In this document: in pieces, positions 2,784 to 17,783 of the stretch | Position numbering within the stretch: the stretch's first letter is position 1 | Layout of the letters: the number at the start of each line of letters is the position of its first letter | DNA from: a virus | Lineage: Duplodnaviria > Heunggongvirae > Uroviricota > Caudoviricetes | Direction: 5' to 3' (one strand) | DNA: 17,783 nucleotides | IMG/VR virus record: IMGVR_UViG_2671180427_000010 | Position numbers and translations under genes: made by a program | The notes under the pieces: generated by a model | Database searches by the model: none | The model's input: only the letters and a program-made list of their open reading frames with translations | Told to the model about the DNA's origin: nothing

Positions 2784-3035
2784 TATCGCGTCCTCAACAA
2801 TGAATTTTGTGATGCGGTGCCTGGTGCCTCCAGGTGACGTTAACCAGTTAACAATTAACGCCGGATACAGAGAATCCACCCATAACACTGTTTTTGGTTT
2901 TAACTGTTCCGCGTGCGCTCAGCCGCATTCACCGCATCACAAAATTCACTTTAAAAACGGCGGCAGAGCAGTCACGGAGTAAAACTGATACCGCCAAACG
3001 TCACCAGAAAATTGATAACAGAGGGCGTTGCAGCG

Positions 3036-4176: not shown

Positions 4177-4584
4177 TTATTGATGTTTGTTACGTTTGCG
4201 AGCTTCTAGTAGCTCGGTGAATAGGCGATTAAAATTCTCAACGCGGGCACGGAGTTCGCTGATTTGTGCTTGCTGCTCTGATTTTGGAAGTGCGCGATAC
4301 AATCGCAACATCTCCAACTCATCTTCCGATAAGTCTAAGGCGCTGTTGAGTGCAACTGGTGGATCTGGTGTTTTATCCTCGTCACCAAACAGTATCCAAG
4401 TTGGTGAACATTGCAATACCTCAGCCAGGCGATGCAAATTTTGCCCGCGCGGGGCTGTATGGTCGCTTTCCCATAGTGAAATTGATGAGCCAGATACGCC
4501 AGCAGCTTTGCTTAAATCGTTTTGACTTAAACCAACCTGTTTGCGTCTTTCTCTAATTCGTTGACCTAAAGTTTTCTCGTTCAT
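4177..4584 (-). CDS. dicA: DicA-like XRE-family HTH repressor (135 aa)
   Basis: ORF track 135 aa. N-terminal HTH (GQRIRERRKQVGLSQNDLSKAAGVSGSSISLWE) and the motif LQCSPTWILFGDEDK recalled from E. coli DicA. Divergent from a Cro-like gene, flanked by identical operators. Confidence 0.75.
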   Translation of the reverse strand: MNEKTLGQRIRERRKQVGLSQNDLSKAAGVSGSSISLWESDHTAPRGQNLHRLAEVLQCSPTWILFGDEDKTPDPPVALNSALDLSEDELEMLRLYRALPKSEQQAQISELRARVENFNRLFTELLEARKRNKHQ

Positions 4585-9507: not shown

Positions 9508-10881
9508 ATGAAAAGACTATATTATACCCATCATGATAGTCGAACCTTAAAACTTGCTATAGAAGGTGATGTTTCTGATAATGCGAATATTTTTACAGTA
9601 ATTGTAGGTAAAAATGGCGTTGGAAAAAGCAGATTGTTATCTCAGATTGCTAAAGACTGTATTCAAGATGTTCATTTCTTGAAAACTTTTAATCCATTAT
9701 TTGACAGAGAAATAACACCAAAGTTAATTGCCGTATCTACCAGCCCATTCGATAAATTCCCTCCAGGGCGTAGGTCATTAAATCACCAAAGGAAAGAAAA
9801 TAATTATCGCTATGTGGGTATGCGTGGAGAAGGCCCCTTCGGCGTATCAAATGCCGTATCCCTTTTATCTTCAGCAGCGAGAGGTTGGCTAGAGAAACTT
9901 GCTTATTCAGAAAATCCTGCAAATTTACTCGATGTTTTTCATTCTATTGATTTTGAGCCCCATATAGAGTTTGTATTTAAACCAACTTACAACGGACCGG
10001 ACACTCCTGACTATAACTTCATTGGTGTATATTCAGATGAGATATTAACGGAAGTTAAGGAGTTATATTTAAAATACAATATAAAAATTGACAGGAAGAA
10101 TATTGAGAGTCTCTTAAAGTTAAACTCCGAATCACGTCATGATATTTACGAAGCACTGGTTGAAATTAATCGATTTGAACCTGAACGTAGGGCTGTAACC
10201 TTGTCAGTCGATTTTACCAATGGTGAAACATTGGTTGGCTCGACTTATGCGAATAATTATTTTTCTAGATCAATTCTTAAACTTATGAACGCTGGCTTCA
10301 TGAGATTGATGGATATGCGACTCATAAAAAAAAGCTATGGTCCCATGTCACTTAAACGTGCGAGCTCGGGAGAACAATGTTTATTAGTGATGTTGCTTGG
10401 AATTGCAGGGCATATAACTGATGGTTCTATAATATTAATTGATGAACCGGAAATAAGCTTGCATCCTCGATGGCAGGAAGAGTTTATCATTATGTTAACA
10501 AAAGCATTTTTAACTTACTCAGGTTGTCAATTCATAATTGCAACTCATTCACCACAAATAATATCCAATTTGCCGAATAAAGGTTGTTATATAACATCTT
10601 TGTCGAAAAGTTATCTTTATAAAGCAAAATACTTTAGCAACCGGTCTGCAGACTATCAACTTGCGGAACTATTTGATGCCCCTGGCATTATGAATGAATA
10701 CATTGCCAGGTTAGCTTTCAATTTACTTTCAAAAGTTAAGACTGCTAAGTTAGTAACAGATGATAATTGGCGTGAATTAAAACAACTCCAACTTCTCCTT
10801 GAAAACGTTAATAGTAATGACCCTATTAATGAACTCGTAAATTCCGTATCTCAGGTGTGTGAAATTTATGCCAAAAATTAA
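9508..10881 (+). CDS. ptuA: ABC-type ATPase, Septu PtuA-like (457 aa)
   Basis: Walker A VGKNGVGKS, signature-like SSGEQ, Walker B IILIDEPE, H-loop IATHSP. AT-rich. Followed by an overlapping HNH nuclease gene, the Septu two-gene architecture. Confidence 0.7.
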   Translation: MKRLYYTHHDSRTLKLAIEGDVSDNANIFTVIVGKNGVGKSRLLSQIAKDCIQDVHFLKTFNPLFDREITPKLIAVSTSPFDKFPPGRRSLNHQRKENNYRYVGMRGEGPFGVSNAVSLLSSAARGWLEKLAYSENPANLLDVFHSIDFEPHIEFVFKPTYNGPDTPDYNFIGVYSDEILTEVKELYLKYNIKIDRKNIESLLKLNSESRHDIYEALVEINRFEPERRAVTLSVDFTNGETLVGSTYANNYFSRSILKLMNAGFMRLMDMRLIKKSYGPMSLKRASSGEQCLLVMLLGIAGHITDGSIILIDEPEISLHPRWQEEFIIMLTKAFLTYSGCQFIIATHSPQIISNLPNKGCYITSLSKSYLYKAKYFSNRSADYQLAELFDAPGIMNEYIARLAFNLLSKVKTAKLVTDDNWRELKQLQLLLENVNSNDPINELVNSVSQVCEIYAKN

Positions 10882-11503
10882 AAATCCAATTAGATTCAGC
10901 GCAGAGTCATTAGATATTATTGAGAAAAAATTGTCTTCTCCAGATTTTAAGCATACCAACTGGGGAGATGATGATTTGCAAGTTCTCCGTGCAGAAATTA
11001 GAAATCATTACAGAGAAGAACAAAAGCTAGAATGTGTATATTGTCATGAGCCTATTGGGGTAAGAGCTGCACAAGCTGCTCCTATAGAGCATATTGTGCC
11101 AAAATCTCAATATCTATGTTTTATTTTTGAACCTAAGAATCTATGTGTAGTATGTCCTGACTGCAATGAATTCAAAGGTAAAAATGAAGTGTTATTTGAA
11201 CCCGTAATAAATGGGGGGCGGCGCAAAAACTATCCAACTGCATCTGCATCATTTCGCATCGTTCATCCACATATAGATGATTATGAGATGCATATTATAA
11301 AAGCAAATCGTGTTTATGTGGACAAAACACCTAAAGGGCACTATACCATTGGAATATGTAAACTAAATAGATTTTTTCATTATTTTGGGATGTGTGATGA
11401 ATTTGTTAATGATGCAAAAATTGCTGAGGCAAATGAAAATTTTTTCAAAAAAGGTAGTATTACTACTAATGAATTATTGGATGATGACATTCATTTGATT
11501 TAA
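10868..11503 (+). CDS. ptuB: HNH endonuclease, Septu PtuB-like (211 aa)
   Basis: HNH motifs CVYCHEPIG, IEHIVPKS, CVVCPDCNEFKG. ATG 10868 overlaps ATPase gene end by 14 nt (ORF-track start 10859 is GTG). Confidence 0.7.
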   Translation: MPKIKNPIRFSAESLDIIEKKLSSPDFKHTNWGDDDLQVLRAEIRNHYREEQKLECVYCHEPIGVRAAQAAPIEHIVPKSQYLCFIFEPKNLCVVCPDCNEFKGKNEVLFEPVINGGRRKNYPTASASFRIVHPHIDDYEMHIIKANRVYVDKTPKGHYTIGICKLNRFFHYFGMCDEFVNDAKIAEANENFFKKGSITTNELLDDDIHLI

Positions 11504-11816
11504 CTATGAATTATTATATTGTAAAGTAATCAGGTAAGATATGTTAGACAGTGAGACTATTGCCTTACAGAATTCATTATTCTTATGGATCGCCTTTCTG
11601 ACTGATTTCATATTGGCGGGGTAACGGGAGTTAAGTAGAATGGCTGCGGGTGCTTGAGGCTATCTGTCTCAGGCATGAACACCAAAGGCAGATAGAGAAA
11701 AGCCCCAGTTAACATTACGCGTCCTGCAAGACGCTTAACATTAATCTGAGGCCAATTTCATGCTAGACACATGTAGGTTAGCCTCTTACGTGCCGGAAGG
11801 CAAGGAGAAGCAGGCT

Positions 11817-11972
11817 ATGAAGCAGCAAAAGGCGATGTTAATCGCCCTGATCGTCATCTGTTTAACCGTCATAGTGACGACACTGGTAACGAGGAAAGAC
11901 CTCTGCGAGGTACGAATCCGAACCGGCCAGACGGAGGTCGCTGTCTTCACAGCTTACGAACCTGAGGAGTAA
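11817..11972 (+). CDS. hokD: Hok/Gef-family type I toxin, HokD (RelF)-like, 51 aa
   Basis: Protein MKQQKAMLIALIVICLTVIVTTLVTRKDLCEVRIRTGQTEVAVFTAYEPEE matches the Hok family (TM helix, conserved C and Y). AAGGAG 8 nt upstream of ATG 11817. ORF-track start at 11760 is an in-frame extension. Confidence 0.8.
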   Translation: MKQQKAMLIALIVICLTVIVTTLVTRKDLCEVRIRTGQTEVAVFTAYEPEE

Positions 11973-12786: not shown

Positions 12787-13836
12787 GTGCGGGTATTACT
12801 TCGACCTGTTCTGGTACCGGAACTCGGGCTGGTGATCGTTAAGCCGGGCCGTGAATCCATGCCAGTATTCCACAATACCCGGGTATTGATGGAGCCGGAA
12901 CCGAAAAGCATGCGTAATCTGCCGTCCGGGGTCGTTCCTGCCGTTCGCCAGCCGCTGGAGGAAGACAAAACATTGCTGCCGTTTTTCAGTAACGCACGGG
13001 TGATTCGTGCTGCTGGTGGTGCTGGTGCATTGTCTGACTGGCTGTTGCGCCATATTAAATCCTGCCAGTGGCCACACGGCGATTATCATCACAGCGAAAC
13101 TGTCATTCACCGTTATGGTACCGGCGCAATGGTGTTGTGCTGGCACTGCGACAACCAGCTGCGTGACCAGACATCCGAATCACTCGAGCAACTTGCTCAT
13201 CAAAACCTGTCAGCATGGATGATTGACGTCATCGGTCACGCAATAAGCGGTACGCAGGAGCGTGAATTATCTTTGGCTGAATTATCCTGGTGGGCGGTCC
13301 GCAATCAGGTGGCGGACGCGCTACCGGAAGCGGTATTACGTCGTTCGCTGGGGGTGCGTGCGGAAAAAATCCGCTCAATGTACCGTGAAAGCGACATCGT
13401 GCCGGGAGAGCAGACCGCCACCAGCATACTGAAGCAGCGCACAAAAAATATTGCGTTACTGCCTGACGTCCACCAGCAACAGAACCCACCACAGGAAAAG
13501 ACGGTGGTCAGCATTGCCGTTGATCCTGAGTCTCCGGAATCTTTCATGAAACGACCTAAACGTCGCCGCTGGGTTAACGAGAAATACACACGCTGGGTGA
13601 AGACTCAGCCGTGTGCGTGTTGTGGTAAGCCAGCCGACGATCCCCATCACCTGATTGGTCATGGTCAGGGCGGAATGGGGACAAAATCTCACGATATTTT
13701 CACGCTACCGCTGTGTCGGGAGCATCACAACGAGCTTCATGCGGATCCGCTGGCGTTCGAAGAAAAGCATGGCTCTCAGGTTGATTTAATTTTTCGTTTT
13801 CTTGATCACGCCTTTGCAACTGGCGTGCTTGGGTAA
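12787..13836 (+). CDS. ydfU: YdfU-like DUF968 protein with HNH-like C-terminal motif (349 aa)
   Basis: GTG 12787 preceded by GGAGGT at optimal spacing. C-terminus has CACCGKPADDPHHLIGHGQGGMGTKSHDIFTLPLCREHHNELH. Length and position after rem match Qin ydfU (recollection). Confidence 0.55.
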   Translation: MRVLLRPVLVPELGLVIVKPGRESMPVFHNTRVLMEPEPKSMRNLPSGVVPAVRQPLEEDKTLLPFFSNARVIRAAGGAGALSDWLLRHIKSCQWPHGDYHHSETVIHRYGTGAMVLCWHCDNQLRDQTSESLEQLAHQNLSAWMIDVIGHAISGTQERELSLAELSWWAVRNQVADALPEAVLRRSLGVRAEKIRSMYRESDIVPGEQTATSILKQRTKNIALLPDVHQQQNPPQEKTVVSIAVDPESPESFMKRPKRRRWVNEKYTRWVKTQPCACCGKPADDPHHLIGHGQGGMGTKSHDIFTLPLCREHHNELHADPLAFEEKHGSQVDLIFRFLDHAFATGVLG

Positions 13837-13848
13837 AAGAGGTGACTG

Positions 13849-14220
13849 ATGCTCATAGATTTGGTTTTACCTTACCCGCCGACGGTGAACACTTACTGGC
13901 GACGCCGTGGCAGCACATATTTTATCTCGGAGGAGGGAAAGCGTTATCGCCGGGCTGTGGCGCTTATTGTTCGCCAGCAGCGGCTGAAATTAAGCCTGTC
14001 CGGAAGGCTGGCGATAAAGGTGATTGCAGAGCCACCGGATAAGCGCCGTCGTGACCTGGACAATATCCTGAAAGCACCACTGGATGCGCTGACGCATGCC
14101 GAACTTCTCATAGACGACGAGCAGTTTGATGAAATCAATATTGTGCGCGGTCAGCTCGTTCCTGGTGGGCGACTGGGCGTGAAGATTTACGAAATCACAG
14201 GTGATAACGATGGCGCGTGA
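13849..14220 (+). CDS. rusA: RusA-family Holliday junction resolvase (123 aa)
   Basis: AGAGGTGA upstream of ATG 13849. Motifs [10 protein letters not shown] and [18 protein letters not shown] match the RusA family. Located just upstream of Q, as in lambdoid nin regions. Confidence 0.75.
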
Positions 14221-14596
14221 TATTCAGCAGGTTATGGAACGGTGGGGGGCTTGGGCTGCAAACACTCATGAAGATGTATCCTGGGCGTCGATCGCTGCTG
14301 GTTTTAAAGGGTTAATTCCGTCGAAAGTGAAATCACGTCCTCAGTGTTCTGATGATGATGCAATGATAATTTGTGGCTGTATGGCCCGGTTAAACAAGAA
14401 AAATCAGGATTTGCACGATTTGCTGGTGGATTATTACGTATATGGAATGACTTTTATGAGTCTGGCACGGAAACTTGGATGTTCGGATACCTGTGTTGGT
14501 AAGCGCCTGCAGAAGGCGGAAGGGGTTATCGATGGCATGTTGATGATGCTTGATATCCGGCTGGAGATGGACAGATATGTAGAACGAATTATGTAG
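14210..14596 (+). CDS. quuD: late-gene antiterminator Q, QuuD-type (128 aa)
   Basis: [23 protein letters not shown]...[14 protein letters not shown]...[21 protein letters not shown] resembles recalled DLP12 QuuD. ATG 14210 overlaps rusA-like stop. Followed by PR'/tR'-like elements. Confidence 0.7.
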
Positions 14597-14601
14597 GTGC
14601 T

Positions 14602-14631
14602 TGACCATATACATTGTCCGGGGCTATATTC
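14602..14631 (+). promoter_or_regulatory. PR'-like late promoter (TTGACC, 18-bp spacer, TATATT)
   Basis: -35 TTGACC 14602-14607 and -10 TATATT 14626-14631, immediately downstream of the Q gene. Confidence 0.5.
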
Positions 14632-14692
14632 CTCGCGCGTCAGCAAAATCTGGCGTCGGGATTGGAACCCCGGATATTCAACCGCGACAGAC

Positions 14693-14717
14693 ACACGCCG
14701 CGAGCGTGTTTTTTATT
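14693..14717 (+). terminator. tR'-like intrinsic terminator (Q-antiterminated)
   Basis: Stem ACACGC/GCGTGT with CGCGA loop followed by TTTTTTATT, about 75 nt downstream of the PR'-like -10. Confidence 0.55.
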
Positions 14718-14878
14718 GTCGTAAGCACACGCACATCTGAATAATGGTGGGGCGTATGGGGGAGCTGAAAGGCTCGCCGGTTGGTTGATCCGGTAGTTCC
14801 AACCCTGTACGTCTCACCACCCAATGATTGGAACCTGACGGTGGTGATAGTTAAATCCATCAACCAGAGGGCGTTATC

Positions 14879-15439
14879 ATGACGACTCAAGTTTCTGTCG
14901 AAACTCTTTCCCCGATCACACACAACCAGCTCCCAGTTGTCACTACAGAGTTACTGGCCAAACTATATGGCTGTAGCGTCGAGTGTATTCATAGAAATCA
15001 CCACCGTAATAAAGAGCGATTTGCAGAAGGGAAGCACTACATAATTGCGAAAGGCGCAGACCTCCAAAATTTGAAAATCTCTTTAAGGGATTTTCAAACG
15101 ATCGCCCCAAATGTCCGAAAGCTCATACTCTGGACAGAACGCGGAGCAGCCCGTCACGCCAAAATGCTCGAAACCGATCAGGCGTGGGAAGTATTCGAAA
15201 AACTGGAAGACTGTTATTTCAACCAAAAACAACCACCAGCGGCACAAAACACATCTATCGAAAATGATGGATGCGCATTACTGATCCACTTCGATAAACA
15301 TGGTCAGGTTGAGTTCACGGAAAAGGTGCCCGCCGATGCGATGGTATGCACTCTGGAACGGTTTAAATTTTATCTGGAGCAACACGGGTGGATCGTTGCC
15401 CGTAAAGAGCAACTGGTGGAGCGGTTGATGCGGCTTTAA
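14879..15439 (+). CDS. ORF6N-domain protein (antirepressor-like), 186 aa
   Basis: AGAGGG upstream of ATG 14879. N-terminal region (LPVVTTELLAKLYGCSVECIHRNHHRNKERFAEGKHYII...RKLILWTERGAARHAKM) resembles the ORF6N/Rha-type domain by recollection. Confidence 0.55.
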   Translation: MTTQVSVETLSPITHNQLPVVTTELLAKLYGCSVECIHRNHHRNKERFAEGKHYIIAKGADLQNLKISLRDFQTIAPNVRKLILWTERGAARHAKMLETDQAWEVFEKLEDCYFNQKQPPAAQNTSIENDGCALLIHFDKHGQVEFTEKVPADAMVCTLERFKFYLEQHGWIVARKEQLVERLMRL

Positions 15440-15514
15440 AAATTTCCCCCGAACGCTTTACGATCGTAAAAAGTTGAATATACTGTTAAGAGTGGTTACT
15501 ACGCCGCACAGCTT

Positions 15515-15541
15515 AAACCCGCCGATGAGCGGGTTTTTTTG
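15515..15541 (+). terminator. rho-independent terminator
   Basis: Stem AAACCCGC/GCGGGTTT with CGATGA loop and T-run; may belong to the upstream gene or to the IS left end. Confidence 0.6.
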
Positions 15542-16262
15542 TGCACAGAAAACCCCCAGCTAGGCTGGGGGTTCCGGAAAGCTTTCAGCTTTGAGCCAGT
15601 TATTAAAACCCCTTTTGATTTGTTAAAACACCTTGCGGTCTGGCAACTGCAAGTGTCAAACAAGAAATCAAAAGGGGGTCCCAATGGGGAACGAAAAGAG
15701 CTTAGCGCACACCCGATGGAACTGTAAATATCACATAGTATTTGCGCCAAAATACCGAAGACAGGTGTTCTACAGAGAGAAGCGTAGAGCAATAGGCTGT
15801 ATTTTGAGAAAGCTGTGTGAGTGGAAAAGTGTACGGATTCTGGAAGCTGAATGCTGTGCAGATCATATCCATATGCTTGTGGAGATCCCGCCCAAAATGA
15901 GCGTATCCGGCTTTATGGGATATCTGAAAGGGAAAAGCAGTCTGATGCTTTACGAGCAGTTTGGTGATTTGAAATTCAAGTACAGGAACAGGGAGTTCTG
16001 GTGCAGAGGGTATTACGTCGATACGGTGGGTAAGAACACGGCGAAGATACAGGATTACATAAAGCACCAGCTTGAAGAGGATAAAATGGGAGAGCAGTTA
16101 TCGATTCCCTATCCGGGCAGCCCGTTTACGGGCCGTAAGTAACGAAGTTGGATGCAAATGTCAGATCGTGTGCGCCTGTTAGGGCGCGGCTGGTAAGAGA
16201 GCCTTATAGGCGCATTTGAAAAACCTCCGGCTATGCCGGAGGATATTTATTGTGCCCGAAAA
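15532..16262 (+). mobile_element. IS200/IS605-family insertion sequence (IS200-like); boundaries approximate
   Basis: Contains Y1 transposase gene. Subterminal hairpins with 8-bp stem and 3-nt loop on both sides: CCCCCAGC-TAG-GCTGGGGG (15552-15570) and CCTCCGGC-TAT-GCCGGAGG (16234-16252). Ends estimated, not determined. Confidence 0.5.
15684..16142 (+). CDS. tnpA: IS200-type Y1 transposase TnpA (152 aa)
   Basis: MGNEKSLAHTRWNCKYHIVFAPKYRR...HIHMLVEIPPKMSVSGFMGYLKGKSS...NREFWCRGYYVDTVG has the HUH motif (HIHML) and catalytic Y region of IS200 TnpA. AAGGGGG upstream of ATG 15684. Confidence 0.85.
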   Translation: MGNEKSLAHTRWNCKYHIVFAPKYRRQVFYREKRRAIGCILRKLCEWKSVRILEAECCADHIHMLVEIPPKMSVSGFMGYLKGKSSLMLYEQFGDLKFKYRNREFWCRGYYVDTVGKNTAKIQDYIKHQLEEDKMGEQLSIPYPGSPFTGRK

Positions 16263-16374
16263 GCGGTACAGAACATTAAACGCGCTGGTGGTTGCGAATA
16301 CCGGTCTTTCAACTTGCTGGCTTTTTCGACAAGAGTTATTGGTATGTTACGTTAACCAGAAAAGGGAAAAAGAC

Positions 16375-16572
16375 ATGCTAAAACAGCAGGATATGACCGA
16401 AACCGCCAGAGTGGTGTTTAATGAGTTAAGCGTCACCGAACCGGCGACAGTCGGGGAGATTGCGCAGAATATGTACCTTTCACGCGAACGCTGCCAGTTA
16501 ATACTGACCCAGCTGGTTATGGCGGGTCTGGCAGACTATCAGTTTGGTTGTTACAGAGTCCTTCAGTCCTGA
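16375..16572 (+). CDS. small winged-helix-like protein (65 aa)
   Basis: ATG 16375 with AAGGGAAAAAGAC upstream; ORF-track start at 16216 lies in the IS right-end region. Resembles the frameshifted small gene at 6914. Confidence 0.45.
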   Translation: MLKQQDMTETARVVFNELSVTEPATVGEIAQNMYLSRERCQLILTQLVMAGLADYQFGCYRVLQS

Positions 16573-16708
16573 AGGTTTTTTATTTGTGGTAAATGGGCGG
16601 CTGGTGGGTGTTAGCGGCACCTGTCAGTCATTTGCTTATGTGTTGATGAGAATTTACTTTTTGGGGCTATAATTAAGCTAACCGATTGCTAATTAAAGTA
16701 AAATTATA

Positions 16709-17422
16709 ATGACTGCTATCTGTTCAGTTATCATGGTTTGTTCCCCAATTAATATTTTTCTTGAAAAGGATACATTGTCACTTAAGCCCGGCTCAGTCGT
16801 TCTGGCCACCAAATGCATCAGGGAGCTTTTCCTTATGCATTATGGCAAAGTTAAAATTGTCGATATAAGCCATTCTATAGTAAGTCAATATCTGGAAAGC
16901 CAGCATAAGCTGACGAGAGGTCCTCTGACTGACATTCCGCTTTACTTGTTGCTGGAACCCAACAATCCTGCGTTGACTGTGGCTTTAATTACCAGTCAGA
17001 GACTTTCCGGAGAGACCACGGATATGTTTCTTATGATGGCCTGCCTGTCGCTGTTTGAATCAGATGAACGGATGTCATTATTTTTAAGTGGATGTGTATC
17101 CAGTATAAGTGCCAAAGTCAGAGCGATAATTCAAACAGATATATCAGCAAGCTGGACGCTTGGTGCGATTGCTCTACAGTTGCATATGAGTGAGAGCTTG
17201 TTAAAGAAAAAACTCAAGGATGAAGGTCTCAGGTTCAGTAATTTGTTACTTGAGGAACGGATGCGGGTTGCTGTAAATATGTTATGTTCCCGGCATGGAT
17301 ATGGACAGGCTGTAGCAGCAAAATGCGGTTATTCAAGTAGAGCCTACTTTATCTCTGTATTTCACCGCTATTATGGCTTCCCGCCAGACAGATATGTATC
17401 CAGGCAAGGGCTTGATTTTTGA
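16709..17422 (+). CDS. AraC/XylS-family transcriptional regulator (about 237 aa; start uncertain), AT-rich
   Basis: C-terminal AraC-type double HTH (WTLGAIALQLHMSESLLKKKLKDEGLRFSNLLLEERMRVAVNMLCSRHGYGQAVAAKCGYSSRAYFISVFHRYYGFPPDRY). No clear SD at 16709; alternative ATG at 16733. Confidence 0.65.
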   Translation: MTAICSVIMVCSPINIFLEKDTLSLKPGSVVLATKCIRELFLMHYGKVKIVDISHSIVSQYLESQHKLTRGPLTDIPLYLLLEPNNPALTVALITSQRLSGETTDMFLMMACLSLFESDERMSLFLSGCVSSISAKVRAIIQTDISASWTLGAIALQLHMSESLLKKKLKDEGLRFSNLLLEERMRVAVNMLCSRHGYGQAVAAKCGYSSRAYFISVFHRYYGFPPDRYVSRQGLDF

Positions 17423-17448
17423 TTTCATCTGATTATTATTTTCGGCCC

Positions 17449-17524
17449 GGCCTTTTAGCTCAGTGGTGAGAGCGAGCGACTCATAATCGCCAGGTCGCTG
17501 GTTCAAATCCAGCAAGGGCCACCA
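17449..17524 (+). tRNA. tRNA-Ile2-like, anticodon CAU (lysidine type; could be Met by anticodon alone)
   Basis: Hand-folded cloverleaf: acceptor GGCCTTT/AAGGGCC, D-arm GCTC-AGTGGTGA-GAGC, anticodon loop CTCATAA, T-arm GCTGG-TTCAAAT-CCAGC, discriminator A, CCA. Resembles recalled E. coli ileX. Confidence 0.75.
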
Positions 17525-17531
17525 TCACATA

Positions 17532-17608
17532 CCGCCATTAGCTCATCAGGAAAGAGCGCCAGCTTTCGAAGCTGGTTGCGCGGAGTTCGGGTCCCCGAAG
17601 GCGGTCCA
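17532..17608 (+). tRNA. tRNA-Arg-like, anticodon UCG, with non-canonical T-arm (possibly degenerate)
   Basis: Acceptor CCGCCAT/AAGGCGG (one mismatch), D-arm GCTC/GAGC, perfect anticodon stem CCAGC/GCTGG with loop TTTCGAA, T-arm CGGAG-TTCGGGT-CCCCG (one mismatch, G at position 58), CCA. Confidence 0.5.
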
Positions 17609-17621
17609 TTATCTGTATCCT

Positions 17622-17679
17622 GCGTTGTTAGCTCAGCCGGACAGAGCAATTGCCTTCTAAGCAATCGGTCACTGGTTCG
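17622..17679 (+). pseudogene. 3'-truncated tRNA-Arg (anticodon UCU) fragment
   Basis: Acceptor 5' GCGTTGT, D-arm GCTC-AGCCGGACA-GAGC, anticodon stem ATTGC/GCAAT with loop CTTCTAA, T-stem 5' ACTGG and TTCG, then no matching T-stem or acceptor 3' strand (ACAACGC absent downstream). Confidence 0.5.
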
Positions 17680-17783
17680 GTAAGCGACTCGTCAGAACCG
17701 TATTGATATTTACTGAGAGCTCAGATCAACTTTCCAGGGCAACAGATCGCGTACCCGGTTTGCCGGCCAGTCCTGGATATGTT

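Follow-up and report, generated by a model that had tools for sequence, protein, structure and literature searches.

Introduction

The first description of the tRNA gene cluster ileZ-argN-argO of Escherichia coli lambdoid prophages is reported to be that from phage 933W (Plunkett et al. 1999, J Bacteriol 181:1767), and Schmidt et al. reportedly noted a gene like ileX close to stx2 in 1997. Literature useful for this cluster includes PMC2858043, PMC7946995 and PMC1635315, and in the Shiga toxin 2 (Stx2) phages of O157 strains the order of elements is q, pR′, a tRNA promoter, tRNA-Ile, two tRNA-Arg genes and stx2A (PMC2858043). Here we analyze IMG/VR record IMGVR_UViG_2671180427_000010, a stretch of 17,783 nucleotides (nt) from a virus of the Caudoviricetes, which we refer to as the window, and in which a first-pass annotation had placed a prophage tRNA cluster with one degenerate and one truncated gene. 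Judged by homology and position, window 17449–17679 is the already known ileZ-argN-argO cluster of E. coli lambdoid prophages, and its third gene stops exactly where the end of an insertion sequence (IS), ISCro1, begins.

The clusters of Stx2a_WGPS8 (AP012540.1; locus L128 in our collection) and phage Lahn2 (AM072972.1) have the same gene order, anticodons and spacing, and the same position downstream of the antiterminator gene Q. The window departs from them in having an AraC-type gene and a copy of IS200C between Q and the tRNAs, and in the state of the genes themselves: argO is truncated by ISCro1, argN is degraded and ileZ has a U at position 5. Unlike in the Stx phages, no stx genes follow the cluster in the sister prophage described below.

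Results

Transfer RNA genes were called with ARAGORN and with cmscan against Rfam RF00005, for which the gathering score is 29 bits. On the plus strand the window has, in the order CAU, UCG and UCU, an ileZ-type gene of the Ile2 type (17449–17524; ARAGORN; 70.3 bits), an argN-type tRNA-Arg gene (17532–17608; ARAGORN; 42.9 bits) and, as a fragment that includes the UCU anticodon arm, the first 58 of the 77 nt of an argO-type tRNA-Arg gene (17622–17679). Aligned with their counterparts in Stx2a_WGPS8, the first is identical to ileZ at 75/76 positions, the second to argN at 69/77, and the retained part of the third to argO at 58/58. RefSeq labels the three genes tRNA-Ile, tRNA-Arg and tRNA-Arg, and several GenBank records name them ileZ, argN and argO. 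Megablast searches of 5,426 complete E. coli genomes and of the phage collection recover the same three-gene cluster in thousands of the genomes and in about 300 phage records, mostly of Stx-converting phages, and a cluster that recurs to this extent is far beyond chance. Between them, ARAGORN, Rfam and alignment to relatives place three tandem tRNA-like genes after the AraC-like gene, where the first-pass annotation had put them, and the rare-codon tRNA set that it had proposed near Q of a lambdoid phage consists of homologues of the Stx2-phage genes. Weak minus-strand Rfam matches in the region (Plastid-ycf2, SNORD103 and SAM_alpha) fall below threshold and were set aside as reverse-complement artefacts of the tRNAs, and the minus-strand open reading frames (ORFs) at 17333–17515 and 17503–17664, which overlap the tRNAs, are regarded as spurious.

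The cluster lies downstream of the Q antiterminator gene (14201–14596, plus strand; Pfam Phage_antitermQ, E=2.8e-52), and the gene immediately upstream of the tRNAs encodes an AraC-type helix-turn-helix protein (16709–17422, plus strand; Pfam HTH_AraC, E=2.8e-11; HTH_18, E=3.3e-10). The same prophage with an intact third tRNA is present in two E. coli genomes at about 100% identity over 17.7 kb. One of these is Z1322HEC0003, with whose lambdoid prophage the window is collinear and about 100% identical up to 17679, which bears out the prophage setting that had been proposed. L002, the locus of the sister prophage, differs from window 13380–17679 by 2 mismatches and no gaps, and its Q homologue is annotated as an antiterminator Q family protein. 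It is here, and not in the window, that the downstream side of the cluster can be seen, where genes for a SASA/NanS-p esterase, a holin and a lysozyme follow.

The first gene is assigned to the Ile2 (lysidine) type rather than to tRNA-Met on the strength of its identity to K-12 ileX at 67/76 positions and to metT at only 54/78. Its homologues are annotated as tRNA-Ile in RefSeq, in keeping with the type first assigned to it, and the ARAGORN label of 'Met' reflects the unmodified anticodon only. A tRNA whose CAU anticodon lacks lysidine reads AUG and is a substrate of methionyl-tRNA synthetase. The substrate of the E. coli lysidine enzyme TilS requires both a C4-G69 and a C5-G68 pair (PMC1635315). 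The window copy shares with ileX the anticodon loop and the C4-G69 pair (C at 17452); it differs from ileX in having U5·G68 for C5-G68 (T at 17453), T6-A67 for C6-G67, and an A27·C43 mismatch that is common to all phage ileZ alleles. The gene scores above threshold with a complete cloverleaf, so the canonical fold claimed for it stands, with the refinement that U5·G68 is rare: among 116 sampled clusters T5 is seen in 2, against 79 that have the common phage allele, C5. Descent from ileZ is certain. Ile2 function is uncertain for a copy with U5·G68, which we flag without claiming a loss of function, as any effect on TilS would be deduced from the base pair.

The second gene carries the marks of decay that were first ascribed to it. 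cmscan flags two non-standard pairs, A6·A67 (17537/17599) and A52·C62 (17584/17594), and the T-loop, TTCGGGT (17586–17592), has a G in place of the expected A58. Canonical alleles in relatives score 54–58 bits without mismatches; that of locus L014, with an acceptor stem of CCGCCAT/ATGGCGG, a T stem of CGGGG/CCCCG and a T-loop of TTCAAGT, reaches 58.4 bits, and its fold is a perfect cloverleaf (−35 kcal/mol). Relative to the canonical form, the window allele has three uncompensated changes, T67→A, G52→A and A58→G, each of which costs a conserved feature, while the anticodon arm, the D arm and the encoded CCA are intact. Folded alone, it forms five acceptor pairs and a UUCGG/CCGAA hairpin that replaces the T arm; minimum-free-energy folding is a poor test of a tRNA, as ileZ and intact argO give no cloverleaf either, and it was used solely to contrast these two argN alleles. 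The argN scores form a series of 58.4, 56.0, 54.0, 45.3, 42.9 (the window) and 37.5 bits, after which they drop below threshold. By this comparison 'degenerate' is the correct description of the window allele, which is derived from a canonical one, and we infer that it folds poorly and is probably weakly functional or non-functional.

The value of 37.5 bits belongs to argN of L002 and of L004, an IMG/VR contig, both of which have a further break, G50→A, at window position 17582. At this position (4203 in L002, 188 in L004) the window has G together with the IS, L002 has A and no IS, and L004 has A together with the IS, while two other loci, L001 and L003, have G and no IS in argO. All four combinations of base and IS therefore exist, which calls for either a recurrent G-to-A change or recombination within a small region.

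For a wider view of the second gene, 120 IMG/VR loci with the ileZ anticodon-arm pattern were gathered, 83 of which have a phage-type ileZ. In 35 of these 83 clusters the second gene is 77 nt long with all stem pairs standard; in 11 it is 77 nt long with both mismatches of the window (and, in one of the 11, a third broken pair), and in another 11 it has the same length with other mismatched alleles. Indels have altered its length in 25, one of which is nevertheless called as a tRNA, and in the remaining cluster the start of argN is unrecognisable. ARAGORN gives no second-gene call in 25 clusters, reporting 'cat-tct' in 21 and 'cat' in 4, and this set overlaps heavily, if inexactly, with the indel set; the gene is indel-altered or uncalled as a tRNA in about one third of related clusters. 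These tallies, like those given below for argO, are contig counts and not independent events. In other lineages the argN anticodon arm has been replaced or deleted, leaving remnants of 66–81 nt that score below threshold; both ends and the T arm persist in the recurrent remnants, where the anticodon arm is broken, replaced or deleted. The argN family has nonetheless evolved as a real tRNA, because it shows compensatory changes at pairs 7-66, 27-43 and 31-39.

Two variants of the second gene were observed alongside these. One is a conserved argN remnant of 80–81 nt, found with little variation in L017 (about 2723–2802) and at least 16 further contigs, which is unrecognised as a tRNA and keeps the acceptor ends and the 3′ strand of the T arm, its anticodon region being replaced (…GAGCAGACGACACGATAACAGGGTTGTTGGTGCGGGGGCGGGT…). 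The other, present in L009 (7193–7502), L053, L057, L059, L062, L079 and L118, has an argN-like body with a UUU (Lys) anticodon and compensated stem changes, and looks like an argN scaffold with a switched anticodon; in these clusters a tRNA-Thr (UGU) and a tRNA-Gly (UCC) stand in place of argO.

Setting aside the 7 clusters of this different CAU-UUU-UGU-UCC type leaves 76 of the 83 in which the fate of argO could be tallied. The gene is called in 70 and lost in 6, where it either stops after the anticodon loop or is fused with argN in a hybrid. In L023, L095 and L097 the cut falls directly after the anticodon loop and unrelated sequence comes next, and the hybrids of L026, L064 and L119 are joined at the CCTTC anticodon-loop motif that both genes share. 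Intact argO shares its UCU anticodon and G73 discriminator with K-12 argU, but at an identity of only 56/77 it represents a phage lineage of its own rather than an argU copy.

In the window, the argO fragment is identical to the corresponding part of intact argO in L002 and L128. What remains is a normal 5′ acceptor strand, D arm and anticodon arm with UCU, plus the T arm's first half; the 19 nt that are gone comprise the T arm's 3′ half, the 3′ strand of the acceptor stem and CCA. Identity to the intact gene, which in L002 is 77 nt long and scores 70.1 bits, ends after T54-T55-C56-G57 (...CACTGGTTCG) at 17679, close to where loss of the cloverleaf after TTCG had been noticed from the letters alone, and beyond this point the alignment diverges completely.

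What follows is the terminal 104 bp of ISCro1, of the IS66 family (17680–17783, minus strand), which starts GTAAGCGACTC... and is identical at 104/104 positions to the ends of the ISCro1 copies of L001 and L003, which belong to two other E. coli genomes. These copies are 2699 bp long, bear the RefSeq label IS66-like element ISCro1 family transposase, and hold the full set of tnpA, tnpB and tnpC; the window has no more than the final 23 codons, with the stop codon, of the TnpC transposase gene (17710–17781, minus strand; translation HIQDWPANRVRDLLPWKVDLSSQ*), with the same C-terminus as annotated in L003. In its end sequence, its transposase C-terminus and its start, GTAAGCG, the window element is ISCro1 as it occurs elsewhere in E. 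coli, with its transposase genes pointing towards the tRNAs. The break at 17679/17680 coincides with the first base of the terminal repeat GTAAGCG and lies between tRNA positions 57 and 58, in the T-loop, so the suggestion that the truncation might mark a recombination or insertion junction resolves to the latter. The L001 and L003 copies are flanked by the 8-bp duplications AGTAATAT and GTGCTTAT, from which the ends of ISCro1 were set, as the repeat search missed its short imperfect terminal repeats. Because both reference copies have duplications of this length, the 8-bp CTGGTTCG (17672–17679, no strand assigned) is the expected duplicated target in the window.

Unlike the window element, the ISCro1 copies of L001 and L003 sit about 330 and 80 nt downstream of argO, and the insertion site of the window, inside a tRNA gene, is absent from all 5,426 complete E. 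coli genomes. Three independent insertions within about 450 bp in or after argO (L001 4652–7350, L003 4347–7045 and window 17680), all in the same orientation and in different prophages, may reflect a local preference of ISCro1, for which the cases are too few to judge.

A sigma-70 promoter-like site, TTGATT-16-TATTAT, was found by consensus scan at 17412–17439 on the plus strand and ends 9 nt before ileZ. Loci whose upstream genes are unrelated conserve its TTATTA/TATTAT part and the TTG ahead of ileZ, and a 'pS tRNA promoter' is placed at the corresponding position in Stx2 phages (PMC2858043); the site is a possible promoter of the tRNA cluster. On the other side of the cluster, L002 has a strong terminator after argO, made up of a hairpin and a T-run (4334–4351; GGCTCGC-TTTT-GCGGGCC). 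The small RNA STnc100 is encoded just downstream of the argO terminator in both L002 (4396–4586; 138 bits) and L044 (2647–2901; 161 bits), and in L044 AgvB is found there as well.

The decoders of AUA, AGA and AGG in E. coli K-12 are minor species, and to our knowledge K-12 has no tRNA-Arg with a UCG anticodon. Codon use was compared between the eight window ORFs with Pfam support and a sample of 36 K-12 genes. Per 1000 codons, ATA is used 22.3 times in the window ORFs and 2.8 times in K-12, AGA 10.7 and 0.7 times, AGG 6.6 and 0.5 times, and CGA 6.6 and 2.7 times. The stx2 genes are more extreme for ATA (36.9 per 1000), and within the window the AraC-type gene is high in rare codons, with 21 AGA and 21 ATA per 1000.

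Several other elements of the window deserve mention. Directly after Q, a promoter-like site (14601–14630, plus strand) is followed by an isrK-like RNA (14637–14714) with a terminator (14693–14709), c4-a1b1 target sites (14624–14676), a C4 antisense RNA (14740–14824) and an ORF6N-domain gene (14879–15439, plus strand), and as a whole 14601–15439 looks like a P1-type c4/antirepressor module in the leader of the late operon. IS200C (about 15515–16242, plus strand) lies between the ORF6N-domain and AraC-type genes, with flanking hairpins at 15515–15536 and 16224–16242, an STnc490 RNA (15551–15674) and tnpA (15684–16142); it predates the ISCro1 insertion, because L002 shares it. Further upstream the prophage has a Septu-type defence pair made up of PtuA (9508–10881, plus strand; PADLOC PDLC00283, E=1e-165) and, overlapping it, the HNH nuclease PtuB (10859–11503, plus strand; PDLC00325, E=1e-83), together with the small RNA DicF (2958–3009, minus strand; 72.5 bits) and a sok antitoxin RNA of the hok/sok type (11648–11822, plus strand; 117 bits), for which the ORF at 11760–11972 may be the toxin.

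Discussion

We regard it as very probable that the window carries a copy of the ileZ-argN-argO cluster, located between Q and the stx/nanS-p/lysis genes, in which argO has been cut by ISCro1 and the alleles have been damaged. What is observed is the cluster's homology and position, the junction, which IS forms it and the fact that the alleles are derived; we infer expression, a decoding role, the loss of argN function and any effect of U5 on TilS. In an intact cluster, ileZ would read AUA after lysidine modification by the host TilS, argN (UCG) would read CGA and CGG, and argO (UCU) would read AGA and AGG, codons that the host uses rarely and phage genes commonly. The cluster lies inside the Q-dependent late transcription unit and would probably be transcribed both from a promoter directly ahead of ileZ and, through Q-modified read-through, from the late promoter; in intact relatives it ends at an intrinsic terminator past argO. 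Insertion of the 2.7-kb ISCro1 into the argO T-loop after position 57 removes the last 19 nt of the gene and inactivates it, and 2.7 kb of IS genes in the opposite orientation would come to stand between the tRNAs and the terminator, STnc100 and the late genes. On its far side a simple insertion predicts ...GAGCCGGTTAC CTGGTTCG AATCCAGTACAACGCGCCA and after that, as L002 has it, the terminator and the nanS-p region. The host argU could still decode AGA, and consequences for the prophage are presumed rather than observed.

Several observations weigh against parts of this account. In ileZ, pairing at 5-68 is kept by a U·G wobble. The site at 17412–17439 matches the promoter consensus at 9 of 12 positions, and such sites do not occur in the region above chance frequency. 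The window argN is still called by ARAGORN and stays above the Rfam threshold, so that its loss of function is a deduction. Lastly, viral and genome contigs yielded neither the predicted far junction nor the 19 nt that argO lacks, and a simple insertion with an 8-bp duplication is therefore not proven.

The retained tRNA call leaves a limited but real chance that the window argN is a fully functional tRNA-Arg(UCG) whose odd features are tolerated or even selected. Its intact anticodon arm, D arm and CCA would fit this, as would the spread of its allele group, which makes up the 11 clusters among the 83 from IMG/VR and recurs in many genomes of E. coli strains that produce Shiga toxin, at ≥98% identity. 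However, all three of its differences remove conserved features and none is compensated, the sequence on its own favours a fold that lacks the T arm, and the score falls from 58 to 43 bits, with 37.5 bits in the nearest relative; the frequency with which the second gene is indel-altered or uncalled also indicates weak selection. Neither ARAGORN nor Rfam finds a fully canonical second gene or a complete third one.

For the break in argO, a simple ISCro1 insertion is the likeliest reading. It is unlikely, though less so than the explanations that follow, that 17679/17680 instead records an IS-mediated deletion or rearrangement in which the 3′ part of argO and some downstream late DNA were lost or moved. 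Such an event would be in line with the failure to find the far junction (the left end of the IS, 8 unspecified bases and AATCCAGTACAACG...) in viral or genome contigs, and the 3′ part of argO has been lost by deletion or recombination in L023, L095 and L097 and in the hybrids L026, L064 and L119. Yet the near junction was itself found in one short contig only, so the failure says little, and ISCro1 sits in L001 and L003 as a simple insertion flanked by 8-bp duplications.

We consider it highly improbable that the junction is an assembly artefact in which a unique contig end was falsely joined to a repeated IS, an error that would predict 17679 to be joined to AATCCAGT. The window does stop 104 nt into a multi-copy IS, as is typical of draft contigs, and the junction has no single-piece megablast match among the 5,426 complete E. 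coli genomes; nor was it found in a one-genome-per-species collection or in metagenome contigs, while viral contigs gave one short contig. That separate IMG/VR contig, L004, has the identical junction and differs from the window by one single-nucleotide polymorphism in 4488 nt. Because an independent contig shares the exact junction, it is no assembly accident, and the break falls at the very first base of the terminal repeat GTAAGCG, as real transposition would give. Because the window and L004, the only other contig to have the junction, each stop within the IS, the 3′ half that was to be sought downstream could not be found. That the third gene is instead a complete tRNA of unusual structure is refuted for practical purposes, as it has no ARAGORN call, and its sole support is a forced alignment of 25.4 bits, below the gathering score, that uses unrelated IS bases as the 3′ half, where the sequence after 17679 is 100% ISCro1 and relatives with the intact gene show another 3′ part.

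As an ISCro1 insertion into a known phage cluster, the 'truncated tRNA' is a routine event that matters little beyond annotation. The prophage copy is eroding, with two IS elements in its late region and damaged alleles in all three tRNAs. The mildly new point is a comparative one, the recurrent erosion of argN: its loss or degradation is much commoner than that of ileZ or argO, in a pattern that fits relaxed selection on it. There is a slight chance, which we would rate very low, that argN remnants are retained not as decoders but as tRNA-like signals that serve the processing or structure of the late transcript; these might be, for example, entry sites for RNase P or RNase E, or a tRNA-derived small RNA, and the misfolding allele of the window may be one form of such remnants. 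The pattern itself suggests that help in decoding CGA is dispensable to these phages, while help with AUA and with AGA and AGG is kept.

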